A stretch of DNA of 64,000 nucleotides, taken from sequence record MH550421. One strand, written 5' to 3'. This stretch comes from Enterobacteria phage T6. Of this stretch, positions 10,702-52,716 are shown piece by piece (the first letter of the stretch is position 1; every line of letters begins with the position of its first letter). The position numbers were made by a program, and so were the translations under genes. Under the pieces are notes generated by a model that did no database searches, was not told the origin of the DNA, and was given only the letters and a program-made list of their open reading frames with translations.

Positions 10702-10707
10702 TTATGA

Positions 10708-11839
10708 TTATGGATAGGTATAGATGATACCAGTTTCTAAAGCAGTTTTATGAATGATGTATCCATTACGTGATTCTTGAACATCAACTTCTGGATAGTC
10801 TTTCATCATCTTCTGAAGAGTGTAACGATGCAGGTAGTATTTACTATCTGGATCTTCAGTTTTCCAATCTTTACCTTCTTCAGTCATTTTTTGAATTTCA
10901 TCCATAACCCACCAACCGCACCAGATGTAAGCTGAAGTACGATGTGGAAGAGGATGAACATAAGGTAATTCACCTTCTGGTTCTGGAGCAACTTTATCAG
11001 TTACCTGAACTTGACCTTCTGCTGTAATAGTTTTGCTATCATAATCAGTAGCAGTAACGACGGCAGTCACTTCAATAGTTTGACTTCCAATAGATGAGGT
11101 ATCAACGGTATATACATTAGTTGACCCTTCTACAGGAGAAGAATCTTTCTTCCATGAATACGCAATTTGCGCTTCTTCTGGAGCATCAGTAACATTAGCA
11201 GTAAATGTAGCCGAAGCATCTTGTTGAACGTTAATAGAAGGAGGAGTCAATGTAACCTGTGGATTCATTGTCTTCTTATTAACCGTTAATGATACTTCAT
11301 TAGAAGTAACTTCCTTTTCATTGTAATTTTCTGCAGTTACTTGGGCTACGCATTTAATTCTTTTTAACTCCACTTGTAGTTGGAGTGTAATTGAATGTAG
11401 CGGAAGTTGCTTCGTCCACAGGAGAACCGTCAACGTACCACTGATATGTGGCGTTTGCGCCCGATGGCTGCGAAGCTAAAGTAGCGGTAAATTCAACAGC
11501 TGTTCCGATTACTCCAGCATCAGGGCTACCAGGAGTTACGGCTAAAGTAGTTGTTTGTGTCTTATTTTGAACTGTGATAGTTGTACTAATTTCAGCTGTT
11601 TCGGGACTACTATCGGCAACTTGATTTGTTGCAACTACTTTAATAGTCTTTTGACCGGCAGGTCCTTTTAGTACATAACTAAAAGTTGCTGACGTTTCTT
11701 CCTGTGGAACATCGTCTACAGTCCAAGCATAGGTAATAGTTCCACCTCCAGTTTCACCACTGGGTGTAGCAGTAAACTGCTTAGTTTCATCAATAACCCC
11801 TGTTGGTGTTTTAGGAGTTATATCAACTGTAAAAGCCAT
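10708..11839 (-). pseudogene. hoc: Outer capsid protein Hoc, reading frame interrupted by 1-nt insertion in a homopolymer run
   Basis: Track ORFs 11354..11839 and 10708..11433 are in different frames; joined at ...TTSGVK/RIKCVAQ... they give 376 aa, the T4 Hoc length; frameshift in T5 run near 11361-11365. Confidence 0.8.
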
Positions 11840-11848
11840 AAGTTATCC

Positions 11849-12529
11849 TTATTTTAATGTTACGAAAGAAGAATTACGTGTTTCACGAATTAGAACTGAT
11901 CCGTCGCGATTAATGTAATAAATTAAGCTAAATAAAGTTTGGTGTGCCGACGCATGTTCAAAACTAGTTGGTTGAGATTTCCAATCCGGAGTTTCAGCGA
12001 TCCATTGATAAATCCACCAAGGAACAGTGCAGAATCCTGGATTTTTTCCAATCAGCTGAAGATTCGGACTAAAGTTTTCCGGAAGAGTAAATACAGACGG
12101 CTTTTCAGATTCAATAATCTCAGCTACAGCCTGTTCGAATTTTTCTTCAACAAAAGGAGTATCTTCAATCAAAACTGAGGTATTTTCAGGAATTTTATCA
12201 GTTTCTACTACTTCAATTTTAATGTCAGATTTAATCGGAGAATCAATCAGAAGTGCTGCTTCTGGATTGACTTCTTCATCGTCATATTTTAATCCCTCTG
12301 CGGCATCAGCAGCATCAATTAAGTCTTTAATAGATAACCCATCAGTCTCTGGCATAGGTTCACTAGCGAGCTTCTGGAGGGCTTCTTCAATATCATTAAC
12401 GATATTATCAAAAGATTTATTCTTTTTGACCTTTATACCAAACTGTTCAGCATATTCAGCTAATTTAGCTTTAGCTTCTTTGTTATCATCAAGAGCCTTC
12501 AGCTCTGCAATATAATCTTTATCTATCAT
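11849..12529 (-). CDS. inh: Inhibitor of prohead protease (Inh)
   Basis: 226 aa, same length and position as T4 Inh. Confidence 0.8.
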   Translation of the reverse strand: MIDKDYIAELKALDDNKEAKAKLAEYAEQFGIKVKKNKSFDNIVNDIEEALQKLASEPMPETDGLSIKDLIDAADAAEGLKYDDEEVNPEAALLIDSPIKSDIKIEVVETDKIPENTSVLIEDTPFVEEKFEQAVAEIIESEKPSVFTLPENFSPNLQLIGKNPGFCTVPWWIYQWIAETPDWKSQPTSFEHASAHQTLFSLIYYINRDGSVLIRETRNSSFVTLK

Positions 12530-12578
12530 AATATTTCCTCAGTATAAATATAGATATATTTATTACTCGGAAAATAGT

Positions 12579-13196
12579 ATGTACCACTTTGTATATGAAA
12601 CAACAAATCTAATAAATGGTAAAAAGTATATAGGAAAGCACTCTACTGATGACTTGAATGATGGTTACCTTGGTTCCGGTAAGGCAATTCAGCAGGCTAT
12701 AAAGAAATATGGTGAAAACAATTTCTCTAGAACAATACTAAAAGAGTTTAAAACTTCCGAAGAAGCGTACATGTATGAAGAAGAAATTATAACTCCTGAA
12801 CTAATAAAAAGCAAAAATTATTATAATATGAAACCTGGCGGAATTGGTGGAATTGTTATGACTACAGAGGTTATAGCAAAGATGAAAGAATCTTCCGCTA
12901 AAAGATTTGAAAACTCACCGGGCACGGTATTAGGTAAAACTTGTTATACTAATGGAACTAAAAATATTTTTATTAAACCTGGAGAACTTGTTCCAGAAGG
13001 ATTTGTAAAAGGGATGGTTCATCCTAATAGAAAGTCCAGAAAAGGATGTAAAGTCAAACCGACTACCACAGGAACTTTTTGGGTCAATAATGGCGCAATA
13101 AATAAATTAATACAACCAGACGGTATTATTCCCGACGGATTTATTAAAGGTCGTCTCATGAAAAGAGATTCTAAAGGCAAATTTAGTAAGGCATAA
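12579..13196 (+). CDS. segE: GIY-YIG homing endonuclease SegE
   Basis: 205 aa; MYHFVYETTNLINGKKYIGKH... GIY-YIG motif; between inh and uvsW as in T4. Confidence 0.8.
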   Translation: MYHFVYETTNLINGKKYIGKHSTDDLNDGYLGSGKAIQQAIKKYGENNFSRTILKEFKTSEEAYMYEEEIITPELIKSKNYYNMKPGGIGGIVMTTEVIAKMKESSAKRFENSPGTVLGKTCYTNGTKNIFIKPGELVPEGFVKGMVHPNRKSRKGCKVKPTTTGTFWVNNGAINKLIQPDGIIPDGFIKGRLMKRDSKGKFSKA

Positions 13197-13198
13197 TT

Positions 13199-14706
13199 AT
13201 GGATATTAAAGTACATTTTCACGACTTCAGTCATGTACGCATCGATTGTGAAGAGAGCACGTTTCACGAATTAAGAGATTTCTTTTCGTTTGAGGCCGAT
13301 GGATATAGATTTAATCCTCGCTTCAGATGTGGCAACTGGGATGGACGAATCCGTCTTTTAGATTATAATCGACTTCTTCCATTCGGCTTAGTCGGGCAAA
13401 TTAAAAAGTTCTGTGATAACTTTGGCTATAAAGCCTGGATTGACCCACAAATTAACGAAAAAGAAGAATTATCAAGAAAAGATTTTGATGAATGGCTTTC
13501 TAAATTAGAAATCTATTCAGGAAATAAAAGAATTGAACCACACTGGTATCAAAAAGATGCAGTGTTCGAAGGATTAGTTAATCGTCGTAGAATTCTTAAT
13601 CTTCCAACATCTGCAGGTAAATCTTTAATTCAAGCTTTGCTTGCGCGGTATTATTTGGAAAATTATGAAGGTAAAATTCTTATCATTGTTCCAACAACTG
13701 CTCTGACAACTCAGATGGCTGATGACTTTGTTGACTATCGTTTATTCAGTCATGCAATGATAAAGAAAATCGGTGGCGGAGCATCAAAAGATGATAAATA
13801 TAAAAATGATGCACCAGTCGTTGTTGGTACATGGCAAACTGTAGTTAAACAACCGAAAGAATGGTTCTCACAGTTTGGAATGATGATGAATGATGAATGC
13901 CATCTTGCTACAGGAAAAAGTATTTCATCTATCATATCAGGATTAAATAATTGCATGTTTAAATTTGGTTTGTCTGGTTCATTACGTGATGGAAAAGCCA
14001 ATATCATGCAGTATGTTGGAATGTTTGGTGAAATATTTAAGCCAGTAACGACTTCTAAGTTAATGGAAGATGGACAAGTAACTGAGCTAAAAATTAATAG
14101 TATTTTTCTTCGCTATCCCGATGAGTTCACTACTAAATTAAAGGGAAAAACTTACCAAGAAGAAATAAAAATTATTACTGGGCTTAGTAAAAGAAATAAA
14201 TGGATCGCTAAATTAGCTATTAAGCTTGCGCAAAAAGATGAAAACGCTTTTGTCATGTTTAACATGTATCGCATGGTAAAGCTATTTTCGATTTAATTAA
14301 AAATGAATACGATAAAGTTTATTACGTATCAGGGGAAGTTGATACCGAAACCCGCAATATAATGAAAACCTTAGCTGAAAATGGTAAAGGAATAATTATA
14401 GTAGCTAGTTATGGTGTATTTTCTACTGGTATTTCAGTTAAAAATCTGCATCACGTTGTTTTAGCGCACGGTGTTAAATCAAAAATCATTGTATTACAAA
14501 CAATCGGTCGTGTATTACGTAAGCATGGTTCTAAAACAATCGCAACAGTCTGGGACCTCATAGATGACGCGGGCGTAGTTTCTAAATCAAAAACATCTTC
14601 TAAAAAATACTCGCATTTAAACTATCTTTTAAAACATGGAATTGATCGTATTCAGCGTTATGCTGATGAAAAGTTTAATTATGTGATGAAAGAGGTTAAA
14701 CTTTGA
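13199..14706 (+). pseudogene. uvsW: UvsW SF2 helicase, frame interrupted by 1-nt deletion
   Basis: Track ORFs 13199..14296 and 14362..14706 are in different frames; second frame is open from about 14263 and encodes the helicase C-terminal domain (VSGEVDTETR, QTIGRVLR); restoring one A in TTTAACATG near 14258-14263 gives a single ORF of about 502 aa. Confidence 0.8.
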
Positions 14707-15395
14707 ATTATAAATTAATATATGATAATTTAATTAATAGAGCCCAGAATCGGGCTCGCCTTAATGAATACACTGAAACACATCATATAATTCCTAGATG
14801 TATGGGTGGTACAAATGATAAGTGTAATTTAGTAGAACTAACGGCTGAAGAACATTTTATAGCCCATAAACTTTTAGCTAAAATTCATCCAAACCATTAC
14901 GGTATAATTAAAGCTGTTATATGTATGGGGATGAATTCAAATACTCATGAAAGACACGTCAATAAATCTTACGCATGGGAACGTCGTAAAATGGCAGAAC
15001 TTCAATCCGGCGAAGGTAATCCATTTTACGGAAAACACCATACGGAAGAACATAAACAATATATGTCAAAACTCATGAAAAGTCGTCCAATTACATGGGG
15101 AAATAAAATTAGTAAAACTAAAAGAATGAACCCAACGAAATGGACTGAAGAAGCTAAAAGATTACATTCAATCAATCAATCGGGTAAAAATAACGGCATG
15201 TATGGAAGGAAACATTCCGCTAAATCTATTCAGAAAATTAAAGATAACATGCCAGATAATTCAGGAGCTAATAACCCAGCTGCTAAACCTATAGAAGTAA
15301 ATGGTGTTAAGTATAAATGTATGAAAGATGCTTCTAAAGCTACTGGATTATCAATGTACAAACTAAGAATACTTAGAAAAACAGTTAATTTATAA
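14703..15395 (+). CDS. HNH homing endonuclease, Mob family (paralog of MobE)
   Basis: 230 aa; N-terminus MNYKLIYDNLINRAQ...ETHHIIPRCMGG...NLVELT..EHFIAH near-colinear with the mobE product at 42588..43229; TTG start overlapping uvsW stop. Confidence 0.75.
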   Translation: MNYKLIYDNLINRAQNRARLNEYTETHHIIPRCMGGTNDKCNLVELTAEEHFIAHKLLAKIHPNHYGIIKAVICMGMNSNTHERHVNKSYAWERRKMAELQSGEGNPFYGKHHTEEHKQYMSKLMKSRPITWGNKISKTKRMNPTKWTEEAKRLHSINQSGKNNGMYGRKHSAKSIQKIKDNMPDNSGANNPAAKPIEVNGVKYKCMKDASKATGLSMYKLRILRKTVNL

Positions 15396-15410
15396 GGGCT
15401 TCGGCCCTTT
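15395..15410 (+). terminator. Stem-loop AAGGGC-UUCG-GCCCUU upstream of uvsW.1 Shine-Dalgarno
   Basis: 6-bp stem with UUCG loop immediately followed by UGGAGAAAAAG-ATG. Confidence 0.45.
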
Positions 15411-15419
15411 GGAGAAAAA

Positions 15420-15651
15420 GATGTTACTAGAATTTAAACAATTTCTTTATGAAGCTTCTATTGATGAATTTATGGGTAAAATTGCCTCTTGTCAAACATT
15501 AGAAGGTTTAGAAGAACTTGAAGCTTATTATAAGAAAAGAGTCAAAGAAACTGAATTAAAAGATACTGATGACATCTCTGTGAGAGATGCTTTGGCAGGA
15601 AAAAGAGCTGAATTAGAAGATTCAGACGATGAAGTAGAAGAAAGCTTTTAA
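15420..15651 (+). CDS. uvsW.1: UvsW.1-like small acidic protein
   Basis: 76 aa from ATG at 15420 (MLLEFKQFLYEA...); GGAG Shine-Dalgarno; position after uvsW. Confidence 0.65.
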
Positions 15652-15706
15652 ATTAAAAAAGGCCCAACCAAAAAGGAAGGGCCAAAACTATAGACTAAAG
15701 GTCACA

Positions 15707-15874
15707 CTATAGCAAAAGTTGCGTTTCATTTAATTGTTCTTCCGAACTTTCTGAAACTGGTAGTTCTTTAATGTAATTATAGCAAGGCCCAGGATGTACA
15801 GGACCTTTGTCTGTTTCAACAACCAATGCAGAATCGATTGGAGTTTTACAGACAACACAAATCTTATCTGACAT
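15707..15874 (-). CDS. Small Cys-containing protein (uvsY.-2-like)
   Basis: 55-aa ORF below track threshold, MSDKICVVCKTPIDSALVVETDKGPVHPGPCYNY...; AGGAG Shine-Dalgarno upstream. Confidence 0.4.
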   Translation of the reverse strand: MSDKICVVCKTPIDSALVVETDKGPVHPGPCYNYIKELPVSESSEEQLNETQLLL

Positions 15875-15902
15875 GATTGTCTCCTCTGAATTATATATCT
15901 AT

Positions 15903-16127
15903 TTATACAACTCTCATATGCATATCAATGCCCATATCTTTAGAATAAAAATATTCATCAAGATATCCGGCAAATTTTCCTTTAATATAAAGGACATCTT
16001 CACCACACGGGTGGTCGGCCAGGATACGAATATCCTGACGCTTAAGATTATGCTTTTTCATTAAGAATTGAATTTCCGTTTCAAATTCTTCTTCATAATT
16101 AAAAGCATCATCAATACTATATTTCAT
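15903..16127 (-). CDS. Hypothetical protein (uvsY.-1-like)
   Basis: 74-aa ORF; start overlaps uvsY stop. Confidence 0.6.
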   Translation of the reverse strand: MKYSIDDAFNYEEEFETEIQFLMKKHNLKRQDIRILADHPCGEDVLYIKGKFAGYLDEYFYSKDMGIDMHMRVV

Positions 16128-41424: not shown

Positions 41425-42591
41425 TTAAAAGTATTTTTTAAAACTCATCATAACTTTATCATCAACATCATTATCAATCTGTGCAACAAGGTAAGATGAC
41501 AATTCTACTTCTTGTGGCGCAGATTGAACATTATCAGAATTAAGATATTCACGAATCCAAGGATATGGATGTTTAACCGGAGCATCGGTAATTGGGCATG
41601 GAAGACCACACTGTTTCATACGAGATACAGTTAAGTAATCAATAAAGCTCCACATGCTATTTGTATTTAATCCAGGAACATCGCCATCTTTAAATAAATG
41701 AACTGCCCAATCTTTTTCTTGGCGGTTAACTTCCATGAAAATATCAACTGCTTCTTGTTCACACTCTTGAGCAATTTTAACCCATTCATCGCCATCAGTG
41801 CCAAGTTGAAGTTGACGAATAATATATTGAGTGCCTTTAAGGTGAAGCTGTTCATCACGTGCAATGAACTTCATAATCTTAGCATTACCTTCCATAATTT
41901 CCATGTTCTTATGGAAGTTAAAGGTACAAGCAAAAGATACATAAAAACGAATAGCTTCCAATGCGTTGATTACATGGAGGCAGAGATAAAGAGATTTCAT
42001 CAGATCTCGTTTAGCTCTTTGCTCAACGTCTTTATCGGCCAGAATTAGACCTTGGTCTTTATAATATTTAACCATGTCTTTGGCATTTTCCCAGGCACGG
42101 GTTTTAAGCAAGACATCATCATAATATTTACCAATGGATTCAGCACGTTTCATAATAGCTTCGTCCAACAGAATTTCATCAAATACTTTAGATGGGTCTG
42201 CGAACAGGTTACGCATAATATGAGTATAAGAACGTGAGTGAATTGTTTCACTAAAAGTCCATGTAGCAACCCATGTATCAAGACTTGGGTCTGAAATTAA
42301 TGACATAAGTACAGCAGATGGCGCACGACCCTGAATGCTATCCAAAAGTGATTGATACTTCAGGTTATTAGTAAAAATATTTTGCTGATACTGAGGAAGC
42401 TTATTAAACTGTGCAGCATCCATCATTAAGTTTACTTCTTCAGGACGCCAAAAAAATGATAAAGATTTCTCAATAAGTTCTTCAAATACTCTATGTCGTT
42501 GAATATCATATCGAGCTAAACCCAATCCAGAACCAAAAAACATCGGCTCAGTCAAAATATTAACAGGGGATGTATTAAAAACTGTACTCAT
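41425..42591 (-). CDS. nrdB: Ribonucleotide reductase small subunit NrdB (no intron)
   Basis: 388 aa continuous ORF; MSTVFNTSPVNILTEPMFFGSGLGLARYDIQRHRVFEELIEK... Confidence 0.95.
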   Translation of the reverse strand: MSTVFNTSPVNILTEPMFFGSGLGLARYDIQRHRVFEELIEKSLSFFWRPEEVNLMMDAAQFNKLPQYQQNIFTNNLKYQSLLDSIQGRAPSAVLMSLISDPSLDTWVATWTFSETIHSRSYTHIMRNLFADPSKVFDEILLDEAIMKRAESIGKYYDDVLLKTRAWENAKDMVKYYKDQGLILADKDVEQRAKRDLMKSLYLCLHVINALEAIRFYVSFACTFNFHKNMEIMEGNAKIMKFIARDEQLHLKGTQYIIRQLQLGTDGDEWVKIAQECEQEAVDIFMEVNRQEKDWAVHLFKDGDVPGLNTNSMWSFIDYLTVSRMKQCGLPCPITDAPVKHPYPWIREYLNSDNVQSAPQEVELSSYLVAQIDNDVDDKVMMSFKKYF

Positions 42592-43229
42592 TTAGAATCC
42601 TTAAATTTACATTTATCATAATGCCATCTTAAAGCATTGCCTTTATTAACTTTCTTGCCACAATGCGGACAAGGCGGATACTCTGTACCTTGCTTAGTTC
42701 TCAAAGAAATCAAATCACGGGTTTCTTTAGTATGAGGAACATCTCTTGTCGGAGAGATTGTACCATACATCGGATTAAGCACGCCGACTTTAGCAGCAGC
42801 TATATTCTTTTTAGCTTCTTCGGTTTTAGGTTTTCTCATGCGAGCTAAATGCTCTTTGGTAAATTTCCTTCCTTTAAGGGCTCTACTTATCTTTTCTCTG
42901 GTTTCCATAGAAACTTCACGTCCTGTAGCAGCTTCAGATAAACGTCGTCTACCTAATTCGTACAGTTGAGAAGAAATTTTATATGAGCGATTTTTACCAG
43001 TCAAGCACATTAAACCAAAAGCTTTCTTTAATCCTGGAGTGTCATATATTTTACATAAAAGCCAATGAGCTATAAAATGCTCTCTACCTGTTAATTCAAC
43101 TAAATTTTCTTTATCATCAGAACCTCCCATACATCTAGGGATTATATGATGAGTCTCTTTATATTCGGATAAAGGTTCCCGAGCCTGAGCTCGGGAAATT
43201 AGGTCATTATAGATTTTTTGATAATTCAT
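42588..43229 (-). CDS. mobE: HNH homing endonuclease MobE
   Basis: 213 aa; ETHHIIPRCMGG...NLVELT..EHFIAH; located between nrdA and nrdB with overlapping start/stop codons. Confidence 0.8.
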   Translation of the reverse strand: MNYQKIYNDLISRAQAREPLSEYKETHHIIPRCMGGSDDKENLVELTGREHFIAHWLLCKIYDTPGLKKAFGLMCLTGKNRSYKISSQLYELGRRRLSEAATGREVSMETREKISRALKGRKFTKEHLARMRKPKTEEAKKNIAAAKVGVLNPMYGTISPTRDVPHTKETRDLISLRTKQGTEYPPCPHCGKKVNKGNALRWHYDKCKFKDSK

Positions 43230-46362: not shown

Positions 46363-47378
46363 CATTATGTTCAGATAAGGTCGTTAATCTTACCCCGGAA
46401 TTATATCCAGCTGCATGTCACCATGCAGATCAGACTATATCTCCAACTTGTTAAAGCAAGTTGTCTATCGTTTCGAGTCACTTGACCCTACTCCCCAAAG
46501 GGATAGTCGTTAGGCATTTATGTAGAACCAATTCCATTTATCAGATTTTACACGATAAGTAACTAATCCAGACGAAATTTTAAAATGTCTAGCTGCATCT
46601 GCTGCACAATCAAAAATAACCCCATCACATGAAATCTTTTTAATATTACTAGGCTTTTTACCTTTCATCTTTTCTGATATTTTAGATTTAGTTATGTCTG
46701 AATGCTTATGATTAAAGAATGAATTATTTTCACCTGAACGATTTCTGCATTTACTACAAGTATAAGCAGAAGTTTGTATGCGAACACCGCACTTACAAAA
46801 CTTATGGGTTTCTGGATTCCAACGCCCGTTTTTACTTCCGGGTTTACTGTAAAGAGCTTTCCGACCATCAGGTCCAAGTTTAAGCATCTTAGCTTTAACA
46901 GTTTCAGAACGTTTCTTAATAATTTCTTCTTTTAATGGATGCGTAGAACATGTATCACCAAACGTTGCATCAGCAATATTGTATCCATTAATTTTAGAAT
47001 TAAGCTCTTTAATCCAAAAATTTTCTCGTTCAATAATCAAATCTTTCTCATATGGAATTTCTTCCAAAATAGAACATTCAAACACATTACCATGTTTGTT
47101 AAAAGACCTCTGAAGTTTTATAGAAGAATGGCATCCTTTTTCTAAATCTTTAAAATGCCTCTTCCATCTCTTTTCAAAATCTTTAGCACTTCCTACATAT
47201 ACTTTATTGTTTAAAGTATTTTTAATCTGATAAATTCCGCTTTTCATAAATACCTCTTTAAATATAGAAGTATTTATTAAAGGGCAGTCCTACAATTTAG
47301 CACGGGATTGTCTACTAGAGAGGTTCCCCGTTTAGATAGATTACAAGTATAAGTCACCTTATACTCAGGCCTCAATTA
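46363..47378 (-). mobile_element. Group I self-splicing intron in td (1016 nt) carrying the I-TevI ORF
   Basis: 5' exon ends ...UUGGGU, intron starts UAAUUGAGGCCUGAGUAUAAGGUGACUUAUACUUGUAAUCUAUCUAAACGGGGAACC and ends ...CUGAACAUAAUG; 1016 nt as in T4 td. Confidence 0.9.
46510..47247 (-). CDS. I-TevI: Intron-encoded GIY-YIG homing endonuclease I-TevI
   Basis: 245 aa; MKSGIYQIKNTLNNKVYVGSAKDFEKRWKRHF...; inside the td intron. Confidence 0.95.
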   Translation of the reverse strand: MKSGIYQIKNTLNNKVYVGSAKDFEKRWKRHFKDLEKGCHSSIKLQRSFNKHGNVFECSILEEIPYEKDLIIERENFWIKELNSKINGYNIADATFGDTCSTHPLKEEIIKKRSETVKAKMLKLGPDGRKALYSKPGSKNGRWNPETHKFCKCGVRIQTSAYTCSKCRNRSGENNSFFNHKHSDITKSKISEKMKGKKPSNIKKISCDGVIFDCAADAARHFKISSGLVTYRVKSDKWNWFYINA

Positions 47379-51702: not shown

Positions 51703-52365
51703 TTATAAGCTATTTATAGGAAGCAATTGATACTTGCAAGATTTCACAGATTCAATGAAAACATTTTTAGCTTTCGGAGAATCAATATTTAAAATTTTTC
51801 TATAAGCCTTTAACTTTATAGAATAATTATTCCAGACTAAATTATCAGTCTGTTCATCATGTTTATCAATTATATTTAAAAATGAATCAAGCAAGATAAA
51901 CGTCTCAAACGAAATTATGTTCGATTGCAGAAGTTTAAAAATATAACTTGACTGAACCTTTGGATTATATTCAAAGATTTCTTTAAAAGCAGAAACTTCA
52001 ACTTTTTTACTAAAATAATAAATATTGCGAATATCTTCTTCAAACTTAAATTTAATTTGCTTTAAGCGTCCGATATATTCACGATAAAACACAAGTGCAT
52101 CAGCGTCAGAGATGTCACCAATCCAAGCATCTTGGTTAGCAACAAGATTGCTTATAAAGATTAAAGCAAGTTCCTTTAATTTATATTTTTCTGATAACTT
52201 CTGGAAAAAATACTTATCCCTTCGCTTTTGATAAGCGGCATCAGACACCCGCATGCACCAATTATACTTAATAACATCATACTTTCCATTCATATGTTGT
52301 TTTATCATTAAGTATAATTTATAAACTGATTTACCATCAATGTATCTTTCACCACCAGCAGGCAT
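51703..52365 (-). CDS. 59: Helicase loader gp59
   Basis: 220-aa ORF; conserved position between 33 and 32. Confidence 0.85.
   Translation of the reverse strand: MPAGGERYIDGKSVYKLYLMIKQHMNGKYDVIKYNWCMRVSDAAYQKRRDKYFFQKLSEKYKLKELALIFISNLVANQDAWIGDISDADALVFYREYIGRLKQIKFKFEEDIRNIYYFSKKVEVSAFKEIFEYNPKVQSSYIFKLLQSNIISFETFILLDSFLNIIDKHDEQTDNLVWNNYSIKLKAYRKILNIDSPKAKNVFIESVKSCKYQLLPINSL
51711..51718 (-). promoter_or_regulatory. Candidate late promoter for gene 32
   Basis: TATAAATA on minus strand within 3' end of gene 59. Confidence 0.5.
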
Positions 52366-52377
52366 GGCGGAGTTTAA

Positions 52378-52716
52378 TCATAGCAGAAAATCTAATGTAT
52401 TAGTTTTTTCACAACGAACAACAGAAGGACGTAAAAGATTTTCGTCAATAGCTTCTGACTGAATTTTTTCAATTATACCCGAAGGAATAAATTTAGCAAA
52501 TTGAGTTTCAGGAATAGAATTTTCTTCTAAGAATGCTGTTGTAGCTTCAAGATAACTCATTCCAAACTCTTCTACCATTTTTTCAATAATAAATCCATTT
52601 TCTTGACGATCAAGAAGCTTTGCTATTTCATCCTTTTCTTTCTTGATTGAAAGTTCTTTTTCTGAAAGACCGGTCTCATCGACCGGACGAATGTCATTTA
52701 GAGAAAACTGTGTCAT
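52378..52716 (-). CDS. 33: Late transcription co-activator gp33
   Basis: 112 aa from ATG at 52716 (MTQFSLNDIRPVDETGLSEKEL...); track start is TTG. Confidence 0.85.
   Translation of the reverse strand: MTQFSLNDIRPVDETGLSEKELSIKKEKDEIAKLLDRQENGFIIEKMVEEFGMSYLEATTAFLEENSIPETQFAKFIPSGIIEKIQSEAIDENLLRPSVVRCEKTNTLDFLL

Follow-up and report, generated by a model that had tools for sequence, protein, structure and literature searches.

A candidate Mob-type HNH homing endonuclease gene adjoining the uvsW terminus in bacteriophage T6

MobE of phages T4 and T6 is a free-standing HNH homing endonuclease whose gene lies between nrdA and nrdB and which nicks nrdB. Another homing endonuclease of T4, the GIY-YIG enzyme SegE, is encoded between inh and uvsW and has uvsW as its known target (PMC2988022 Table 1). 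One intergenic site can also hold different endonuclease genes in related phages, as in the case of Hef/SegH in place of mobE/mobC, for which PMC2988022 cites Sandegren et al. 2005. The enzymes I-TevI (C-terminal domain, PDB 1I3J/1T2T) and I-HmuI (1U3E) are intron-encoded, unlike the gene described below.

Here we analysed a 64,000-nt stretch of record MH550421, referred to as the window, which is phage T6 sequence with 99.98% identity to NC_054907. The list of open reading frames contains, at 14703..15395 on the plus strand, a 230-aa ORF with a TTG start that is assigned to a Mob-type HNH homing endonuclease. We put the probability at roughly 0.7 that the ORF encodes a free-standing HNH homing endonuclease of the T-even Mob family that is still functional, or was so until very recently, and that acts specifically on the uvsW 3' end. 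Literature searches found no paper describing or characterising the gene, which would add a sixth, unstudied Mob-type lineage, carried by the classical phage T6, to the T-even catalogue and would leave the current understanding of homing endonucleases unchanged.

Relationship to MobE and other endonucleases

Within the window, the closest paralog of the 230-aa protein is the product of mobE (42588..43229, minus strand; 213 aa, between nrdA and nrdB), which is matched by BLASTP with E = 3e-34 and 39% identity over 183 aa. When the T-even paralogs were ranked, MobE came first (E = 1.6e-33), ahead of MobB (9e-26), MobD (7e-25) and MobC (2e-18), in keeping with the paralogy to mobE proposed in an earlier note on this sequence, and the HNH motif lines up with those of MobB–E. 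That note had described the N-terminal 60 aa as shared with mobE almost residue for residue; the similarity is far beyond chance, but the description was overstated, since identity over the first 60 residues is 72% (43 positions, counted on the BLASTP alignment). The note had also regarded the region that follows as different from mobE. This is the case for the last ~50 residues, which are unrelated, but past residue 60 a weak alignment extends across the NUMOD3 repeats as far as residue ~180.

The protein consists of an HNH region at about residues 1–75, NUMOD3 motifs in its middle part and a putative I-TevI-like DNA-binding region at about residues 157–228. It matches PHROG 655 ('homing endonuclease') with E = 1e-59 and, in two stretches, Pfam NUMOD3 (PF07460) with 51.8 bits against a cut-off of 20.4 (E = 7.6e-14). 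The score with Pfam HNH (PF01844) is 17.4 bits, under the curated gathering cut-off of 21.4, compared with 24.4 for the MobE of the window. The catalytic residues have nevertheless been kept: H28, N42, H51 and H55, which are invariant in a 62-member family alignment, are all found in the T6 protein (H27/H28 at the first position). Residues 157–216 gave a match to the I-TevI DNA-binding domain 1I3J (E = 0.006). The nuclease domain of I-TevI is of the GIY-YIG type whereas that of the T6 protein is HNH, and structural scores against 1I3J/1T2T and 1U3E are too low for proving common descent of the whole proteins. Judged by its sequence, the 230-aa protein is a member of the Mob family.

In addition to the N-terminal HNH identity, the NUMOD3 motifs and PHROG 655 are common to this protein and MobE. 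Neither cassette has a promoter of its own, and in both the start codon overlaps the stop codon of the preceding gene (for mobE, PMC2988022); both also have a GC-rich hairpin near the 5' end, at the same codons (RAQ.R). They differ in the start codon, which is ATG in mobE and TTG in the uvsW-linked gene, as well as in locus and presumed target, nrdB for MobE and the uvsW 3' end here. Read from the sequence, the C-terminal ~50 residues appear to form an I-TevI-like helix-turn-helix region, whereas MobE has a CxxC...HxxxC motif in this part.

It is very improbable that the gene is an inactive relic persisting through linkage, even though the TTG start and the sub-threshold Pfam HNH score would fit such a state and T4 mobA, according to its annotation, is an example of Mob gene decay. 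The ORF is intact and of full length in 11 of 11 carriers sampled, with a pN/pS of ~0.06 at a synonymous divergence of up to 15%, so that the gene has been under strong purifying selection. Retention of every family-invariant catalytic residue, and of orthologs that are 55–69% identical across genera, likewise argues against decay.

Structure of the insertion between uvsW and uvsW.1

The helicase gene uvsW spans 13199..14706 on the plus strand, and its TGA stop codon (14704–14706) is overlapped by the TTG start codon of the endonuclease gene (14703–14705), exactly as first noticed. A GAGG is located at 14692–14695, 7 nt 5' of the TTG, and the endonuclease is read in a frame separate from that of uvsW. 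On the other side, uvsW.1 (15421..15651, plus strand; 76 aa, ATG start) is preceded by a GGAG and by the hairpin GGGCTTCGGCCC at 15396–15407, and its 25-nt upstream context is the same as in T4. In T4, uvsW.1 begins 25 nt past uvsW with no gene in between, which confirms the T4 gene order given in the note. Alignment of the uvsW–uvsW.1 junctions revealed a gap block in 12 of 12 endonuclease-less genomes; the 689 bp missing from T4, T2, RB3 and RB33 correspond to 14689..15377 (plus strand), with boundaries that are uncertain by a few nt owing to AAA microhomology. With the HNH residues kept and these relatives lacking the insert, the placement of a Mob-type HNH gene between uvsW and uvsW.1 is borne out.

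Comparison with T4 and the junction alignment show that both flanking genes are complete and separate. The endonuclease gene is free-standing, lying between conserved genes and outside any intron or intein. A group I intron or intein context was rejected, since no intron RNA family matched in Rfam within 12400–16000 and the flanking genes are whole. Phages G8 and G28 annotate the endonuclease as group I intron-encoded, a label for which the locus lacks the intron. In the record of PST, the flanking genes are named uvsW-A and uvsW-B, as if the endonuclease gene split a single helicase gene into N- and C-terminal parts. Such a split is hardly credible, since T4 and all relatives have uvsW (503 aa) and uvsW.1 (76 aa) as two distinct genes, with a stop codon, a hairpin and a separate ribosome-binding site between the two genes in T4. 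It was rejected on the basis of resequencing and structural work, according to which the fused uvsW/uvsW.1 form is a sequencing error in an old T4 record (PMC1524935; PMC6486255). The database labels 'mobD', 'group I intron endonuclease' and 'uvsW-A/uvsW-B' can thus be set right; in T6 and PST, the GenBank label of the gene is already 'homing endonuclease'.

In the window, an AAA run at ~14261 lacks one base, which divides uvsW into the ORFs 13199..14296 and 14362..14706. The deletion lies 440 nt 5' of the endonuclease gene, a proximity that had been singled out as worth noting. It is present in this sequence, as one of only two indels in the 64 kb, but neither the T6 reference nor any of the 499 other records holding the segment shares it, and both PST and the T6 reference have a whole uvsW of 1509 nt. 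Since it is private to this sequence, a link between the endonuclease and the frameshift was rejected.

In carriers, the 3' end of uvsW is recoded. The stretch at 14686..14706 (plus strand; ATGAAAGAGGTTAAACTTTGA) encodes MKEVKL*, and the recoded tail (KEVKL*) supplies both the GAGG ribosome-binding site and the TTG start codon of the endonuclease gene. The original end of uvsW is displaced to 15378..15395 (plus strand; AAAACAGTTAATTTATAA, KTVNL*), where it is identical to the final 18 nt of T4 uvsW, is read in frame with the endonuclease and now provides the last codons and stop of that ORF. The locus is thus an example of a free-standing endonuclease cassette that entered a gene's last codons with neither neighbour damaged. 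The same recoded tail, GAGG and TTG are found in Dhakavirus carriers, and the terminus of their endonuclease, MKQVDL*, equals the uvsW end of JS98, a displaced-tail arrangement as in Tequatrovirus.

In Dhakavirus Bp7, a MobD-like HNH gene occupies the same uvsW junction, again with this tail, GAGG and TTG. As for Hef/SegH, different endonuclease genes, MobD-like in Bp7 and T6-type elsewhere, are thus present at one intergenic site in related phages. The case differs from Hef/SegH in that the Bp7 gene has its 5' junction and a few initial codons in common with the T6-type gene, which suggests that the 3' part of the gene may have been replaced, rather than the site having been invaded by an unrelated gene. 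We tentatively propose, at slightly less than even odds, that the mobile unit is more than an ORF and amounts to a portable 'landing pad', in which the recoded end of uvsW gives a ribosome-binding site, a TTG start and self-immunity, together with an in-frame fusion to the displaced host stop. This unit would be conserved between Tequatrovirus and Dhakavirus, and more than one Mob-type nuclease would have made use of it, at least the T6-type and the MobD-like one of Bp7.

Distribution and the linked uvsW haplotype

A scan of IMG/VR by UvsW.1 gave 14 loci only, and the population sample was taken from GenBank records. The full-length gene is present in 48 of the ~499 Tequatrovirus records that hold the uvsW segment, whereas the site is empty in T4, T2, RB3, RB33, phiD1, wV7 and others, so that its distribution is patchy and far from universal. 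Dhakavirus PSD2002 and UP19, Morganella phage Rgz1 and metagenomic T4-like contigs have orthologs of 55–69% identity at precisely this site, with the 4-nt overlap between the endonuclease start and the uvsW stop preserved. The term lineage-specific, by which the homing endonuclease insertion had been described, is therefore too narrow: the gene is an insertion and is absent from T4, but it is polymorphic among Tequatrovirus and has orthologs in other genera. No close endonuclease-less relatives of the distant orthologs (L020–L025) were present among the IMG/VR loci, and for Dhakavirus the haplotype comparison drew on three extra records only.

Comparison of 11 carriers with 12 non-carriers gave 28 fixed differences, all of them within 14571–14685 (the last ~130 nt of uvsW) and none elsewhere in uvsW or in uvsW.1; polymorphisms just 3' of the endonuclease gene are few, which makes the absence of fixed differences there weakly informative. 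A highly diverged core patch (14571..14613, plus strand) accounts for 21 of the 28, with a between-group divergence of 0.37, and encodes AGVVSKSKTSSKKYSH in carriers and (A/C)GVKPKSAN(T/M)KKKYVH in non-carriers (A in T4 and L007). The remaining seven, all synonymous, form a proximal linked block (14619..14685, plus strand) on the endonuclease side of the core patch. Linkage of the haplotype to the gene is strict: the core patch was found at 95% identity or more in exactly 48 records, equal to the 48 with the endonuclease, and the two sets agree among the matches listed. Four endonuclease-less phages, LH2 and OES_C-1/2/3, have the core patch only, next to a T4-type proximal block, which is consistent with what would be left by repair that converts the cut site but stops short of the endonuclease gene. 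As a positive control, segE (12579..13196, plus strand), an independent element at the opposite end of uvsW, gave a mirrored pattern, with 26 fixed differences that all lie at the 5' end of uvsW, in 13200–13309.

These comparisons predict that an endonuclease-less allele is recognised or cleaved at the core patch and that the self-immunity of carriers resides in the same place. Alternatively, an active endonuclease might target the insertion junction itself (the uvsW stop and the region upstream of uvsW.1), as intron-encoded enzymes do, with immunity conferred by the insert splitting the site and the upstream patch merely hitch-hiking from the donor. The exact conservation of the insertion point across genera would be expected in that case, as would the separation of patch and gene in LH2 and the OES_C phages, and the carrier contigs L020 and L021 have the gene next to an unaltered patch. 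We nevertheless regard a junction target as unlikely. Characterised free-standing T4 endonucleases have target genes that do not coincide with the intergenic sites of their own insertion (PMC2988022 Table 1), such enzymes can act far from their own locus (PMC13096335), and the segE control has the same kind of flanking patch. Furthermore, the patch codons are altered in five of six carrier lineages (T6, PSD2002, UP19, Bp7 and Rgz1), independently at SAN-T/A and with a different replacement in each, a pattern that points to selection acting on the site and not to hitch-hiking. Since L020 and L021 retain the non-carrier KPKSANAKKKYVH motif and the KTVNL* tail, immunity cannot depend on the core patch throughout the family. 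Part of the linked haplotype might also reflect historical hitch-hiking, with the 37%-diverged stretch recombining poorly.

A domesticated protein with a role beyond homing, such as harming co-infecting rivals, stimulating recombination or segment amplification, or regulatory DNA binding, is improbable. Roles of this kind have been reported for other phage homing endonucleases, for instance SegB in T6 (PMC13096335), and would be compatible with strong purifying selection; the locus, however, gives no hint of a second function, and presence in ~10% of records together with a linked, immunity-like patch is what a plainly selfish element predicts.

Proposed homing pathway and the relation to segE

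For an enzyme directed at the uvsW 3' end, the following course of events is envisaged. Transcription would be late, probably on a segE–uvsW message from the late-promoter consensus TATAAATA upstream of segE (12543–12550); a scan for sigma-70 promoters and terminators gave nothing exceeding shuffled expectation. Since the TTG start overlaps the TGA stop, translation would be low and probably coupled to termination of uvsW. During mixed infection the protein would bind DNA via its C-terminal half, through the NUMOD3 and helix-turn-helix parts, and nick or cut a uvsW allele that lacks the endonuclease gene, at a point no more than ~135 bp from the end of uvsW and most likely around the conserved KPKSAN(T/A)KKKYVH codons, ~75–115 bp upstream of the insertion point. 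Recombination-dependent repair off the carrier genome would then copy the 689-bp cassette together with the adjoining uvsW 3' haplotype, and the carrier would be immune because its own stretch is ~37% diverged and its uvsW end is recoded. The pathway predicts that T4-type uvsW is cut ~75–115 bp before the stop codon while T6-type and LH2-type alleles are resistant, and that T6 uvsW 3' markers are over-inherited in T4 x T6 crosses. If the landing-pad reading is also true, uvsW would be a predictable marker-exclusion hot spot in T-even crosses, with the position of the target site predicted.

SegE resembles the endonuclease described here in that it approaches the same target gene from the other end, has a patchy distribution too and adjoins a block of fixed differences over ~110–115 nt of uvsW, but its nuclease family, GIY-YIG, is unrelated to HNH. 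Together with segE, a landing pad of the kind proposed would leave uvsW bracketed by two independent drive elements. The two genes assort independently among genomes: both are present in 6, the HNH gene only in 5, segE only in 4 and neither in 8.

A Mob-type HNH gene downstream of uvsW

The ORF at 14703..15395 (+), between uvsW and uvsW.1, encodes 230 aa and begins at a TTG (14703-14705) that overlaps the uvsW stop codon TGA (14704-14706), with a GAGG 7 nt upstream (14692-14695). Homology to MobE runs from residue 1 (MNY...), in support of this TTG, where the earlier note had placed the start, as the true one. When compared by BLASTP with the window's own MobE (42588..43229, -), the product (the HNH protein) showed 39% identity over 183 aa (E = 3e-34), and both proteins fall in phrog_655 of the PHROGs collection, 'homing endonuclease' (E = 1e-59). 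The initial reading of a Mob-type HNH homing endonuclease gene paralogous to mobE is right in substance. Among the T4 Mob proteins, MobE was the best match, followed by MobB (44% over 126 aa), MobD (57% over 75 aa) and MobC (42% over 107 aa), the likeness lying mostly in the N-terminal HNH domain. The Pfam HNH match is sub-threshold (17.4 bits versus a cut-off of 21.4). No loss of HNH residues was seen: every residue that is invariant across 62 aligned database homologs (Y3, H28, P31, G36, N42, L46, E50, H51, H55 and L58, counting Met1), the HNH motif among them, is present in the window's protein.

Pfam also detected NUMOD3 in two stretches (E = 7.6e-14). Residues 157-216 match I-TevI twice, once as its DNA-binding domain (PDB 1I3J, E = 0.006) and once, by tblastn, as the I-TevI gene that the window carries in its td intron (E = 1e-5). 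These matches therefore point to a protein with a Mob-type HNH nuclease at the N-terminus, NUMOD3 motifs as linkers and a helix-turn-helix end like that of I-TevI. The C-terminal DNA-binding module held in common with the I-TevI gene (~46546-46743, - strand) would be an example of a module shared by a GIY-YIG and an HNH endonuclease of one genome. Near-identity of the first 60 residues to MobE, followed by a different C-terminus, had been proposed; the likeness is strong but short of near-identity (43/60 identical by hand count on the BLASTP alignment), and the main difference is confined to the last ~50 residues, where MobE has a CxxC...HxxxC arrangement (read from sequence).

The T6 annotation (YP_010067330) calls the gene 'homing endonuclease', that of Yersinia phage PST uses 'mobD / MobE', and those of phages G8 and G28 give 'group I intron endonuclease'; literature searches found no published description of it. 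The ORF is intact, with the TTG start, in all 11 sampled Tequatrovirus genomes that have it (carriers), among which pairwise synonymous divergence reaches 0.15 and pN/pS is about 0.06. Purifying selection is acting on the protein, and this counts against the gene being a dead relic. Judged from its sequence, this is a well-preserved Mob-type homing endonuclease gene, already labelled in databases yet uncharacterised.

Upstream of segE, positions 12543-12550 match the late-promoter consensus perfectly (TATAAATA), and no convincing sigma-70 promoter or terminator was found between this site and the HNH gene. A GC-rich hairpin in the HNH gene (14740-14757) occupies the same R-A-Q-x-R codons as the GC-rich internal hairpin of mobE (43170-43195, -), the known weak internal terminator of that gene. 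In the predicted minimum-energy fold, the GAGG ribosome-binding site pairs with GCCUU just after the 14740-14757 hairpin (z = -2.95; prediction only). The start/stop overlap suggests that translation may be coupled to that of uvsW; such coupling has been proposed for mobE and nrdA (PMC2988022).

Distribution and junction anatomy

A full-length HNH gene was found in 48 phage records (96.5-100% identity), compared with 499 Tequatrovirus-type records for the neighbouring uvsW segment; therefore ~10% carry it. In T4, T2, RB3, RB33, phiD1, wV7, pSs-1 and others, a uvsW-to-uvsW.1 query was covered to only 72%, in two pieces, showing that the gene is not universal; in T4, uvsW.1 begins 25 nt after uvsW, in line with the earlier note. 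Every relative with 55-69% protein identity, whether from Dhakavirus PSD2002, Morganella phage Rgz1 or metagenomic T4-like contigs, likewise occupies the uvsW-uvsW.1 junction and keeps the 4-nt start/stop overlap. Within Dhakavirus, 7 of 55 records gave a full-length match, while JS98, JS10, WG01 and others have an empty site. The element is therefore patchy inside genera, yet faithful to one site across genera, so that the suggested lineage-specific insertion stands as regards patchiness but not as regards restriction to one lineage.

Aligned with T4, the insert is 689 bp (14689-15377). The final 18 nt of the HNH ORF (AAAACAGTTAATTTATAA, KTVNL*) are the final 18 nt of T4 uvsW in the same frame, whereas T6 uvsW ends in a recoded copy, ATGAAAGAGGTTAAACTTTGA (MKEVKL*), that contains the GAGG and TTG. 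The 25 nt from the stop codon to the uvsW.1 ATG are unchanged relative to T4, including the GGGCTTCGGCCC hairpin and GGAG. Thus, the cassette enters a few codons before the uvsW stop, its replacement uvsW end doubles as the endonuclease translation start region, and the HNH ORF borrows the host stop codon. Dhakavirus repeats this design: JS98 uvsW ends in ...ATGAAACAGGTGGATTTATGA (MKQVDL*), the endonuclease ORFs of PSD2002 and UP19 end in exactly that string, and their uvsW ends in ATGAAAGAGGTCCAAATTTGA (MKEVQI*), with a TTG endonuclease start.

Another Mob-type HNH gene (260 aa) occupies exactly the same junction in Dhakavirus Bp7 (L046, 1002-1784), with a KEVQL* tail, GAGG and TTG start as in the T6-type cassette. 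Its product is nearest to T4 MobD (29% over 258 aa) and resembles the T6 protein only in the first 64 aa. This suggests that one endonuclease has replaced another, or that domains have been swapped, at a landing site common to both.

A diverged uvsW patch linked to the gene

When the stretch spanning uvsW and uvsW.1 was aligned for 11 carriers and 12 non-carriers, all 28 positions without a shared allele between the groups fall in 14571-14685, and between-group divergence reaches 0.37 in 14548-14637. Over the rest of uvsW and uvsW.1, between-group divergence equals within-group divergence (mostly about 0.01-0.06), the uvsW 5' end reaching about 0.15 but tracking segE instead of the HNH gene. 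The core patch (14571-14613) encodes AGVVSKSKTSSKKYSH in carriers and (A/C)GVKPKSAN(T/M)KKKYVH in non-carriers; the other seven fixed changes lie between this patch and the recoded tail, and every one is synonymous. At >=95% identity, the T6-type patch occurs in exactly 48 database records, the same count as the HNH gene, and the two sets agree among the matches listed (40 for the HNH gene).

As a positive control, the same genomes were regrouped by presence of segE, a GIY-YIG gene whose product targets uvsW (PMC2988022, Table 1). With this split, 26 differences were fixed, and each of them falls within the first 110 nt of uvsW (13200-13309), adjoining segE (gene plus linked patch, 12579-13309). 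The two genes assort independently (both in 6 genomes, HNH only in 5, segE only in 4, neither in 8). T6 uvsW therefore has an independent homing endonuclease cassette at either end, and each cassette comes with a separate diverged patch.

Four endonuclease-less Tequatroviruses, LH2 (L044, 1560-1741) and OES_C-1/2/3 (OES_C-2: L045, 1560-1741), have the T6-type core patch, T4-type sequence from 14619 and an empty site. These are naturally occurring recombinants ('resistant empty sites'). Such alleles would be expected if a cut in the patch region were repaired by conversion that stopped short of the endonuclease gene; alternatively, they could be the ancestral allele that the HNH gene originally entered. 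The SAN(T/A) codons are kept in non-carriers of several genera and changed in T6, PSD2002, UP19, Bp7 and Rgz1, differently in each. An exception to the linked-patch rule is provided by metagenomic T4-like carriers (L020/L021, 2850-3004), in which a 69%-identical ortholog with an ATG start sits at the same site, while uvsW retains both its KTVNL* end and the KPKSANAKKKYVH motif of non-carriers. The patch is therefore a good, not universal, candidate target. The cassette is tidily built, and its predicted target in the uvsW 3' end is testable. Nuclease activity, nicking versus cutting, target position and homing are inferences.

The uvsW frameshift and differences from the T6 reference

In the window, an AAA run at about 14261 has lost one A (AAA to AA, 14259-14263), which breaks uvsW into two ORFs, 13199..14296 and 14362..14706, whereas the gene is intact (1509 nt) in the T6 reference and PST. 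The earlier note had thought the closeness of this frameshift to the HNH gene noteworthy. However, the deletion is missing from all 499 other phage records that contain the segment and lies 440 nt away; it is a private mutation or sequencing error, unrelated to the HNH gene.

End-to-end alignment with NC_054907/AP018814 identifies the window as phage T6: the two share 99.978% identity, differing by 12 substitutions and 2 single-base indels, and position 1 of the window corresponds to about T6 position 95,996. Differences are bunched at the two ends of gene 59 (helicase loader; 51709-51778 and 52366-52384), where 7 substitutions are tightly clustered and a one-base insertion and one more substitution also occur, and the ORF (51703..52365) encodes 220 aa versus 217 aa in the reference. 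This clustering is odd given 99.98% identity across the rest of the genome. The hoc region (~10707-11838, - strand) is annotated in the T6 reference as two overlapping 'Hoc-like' CDS, which suggests that hoc is frameshifted in T6.
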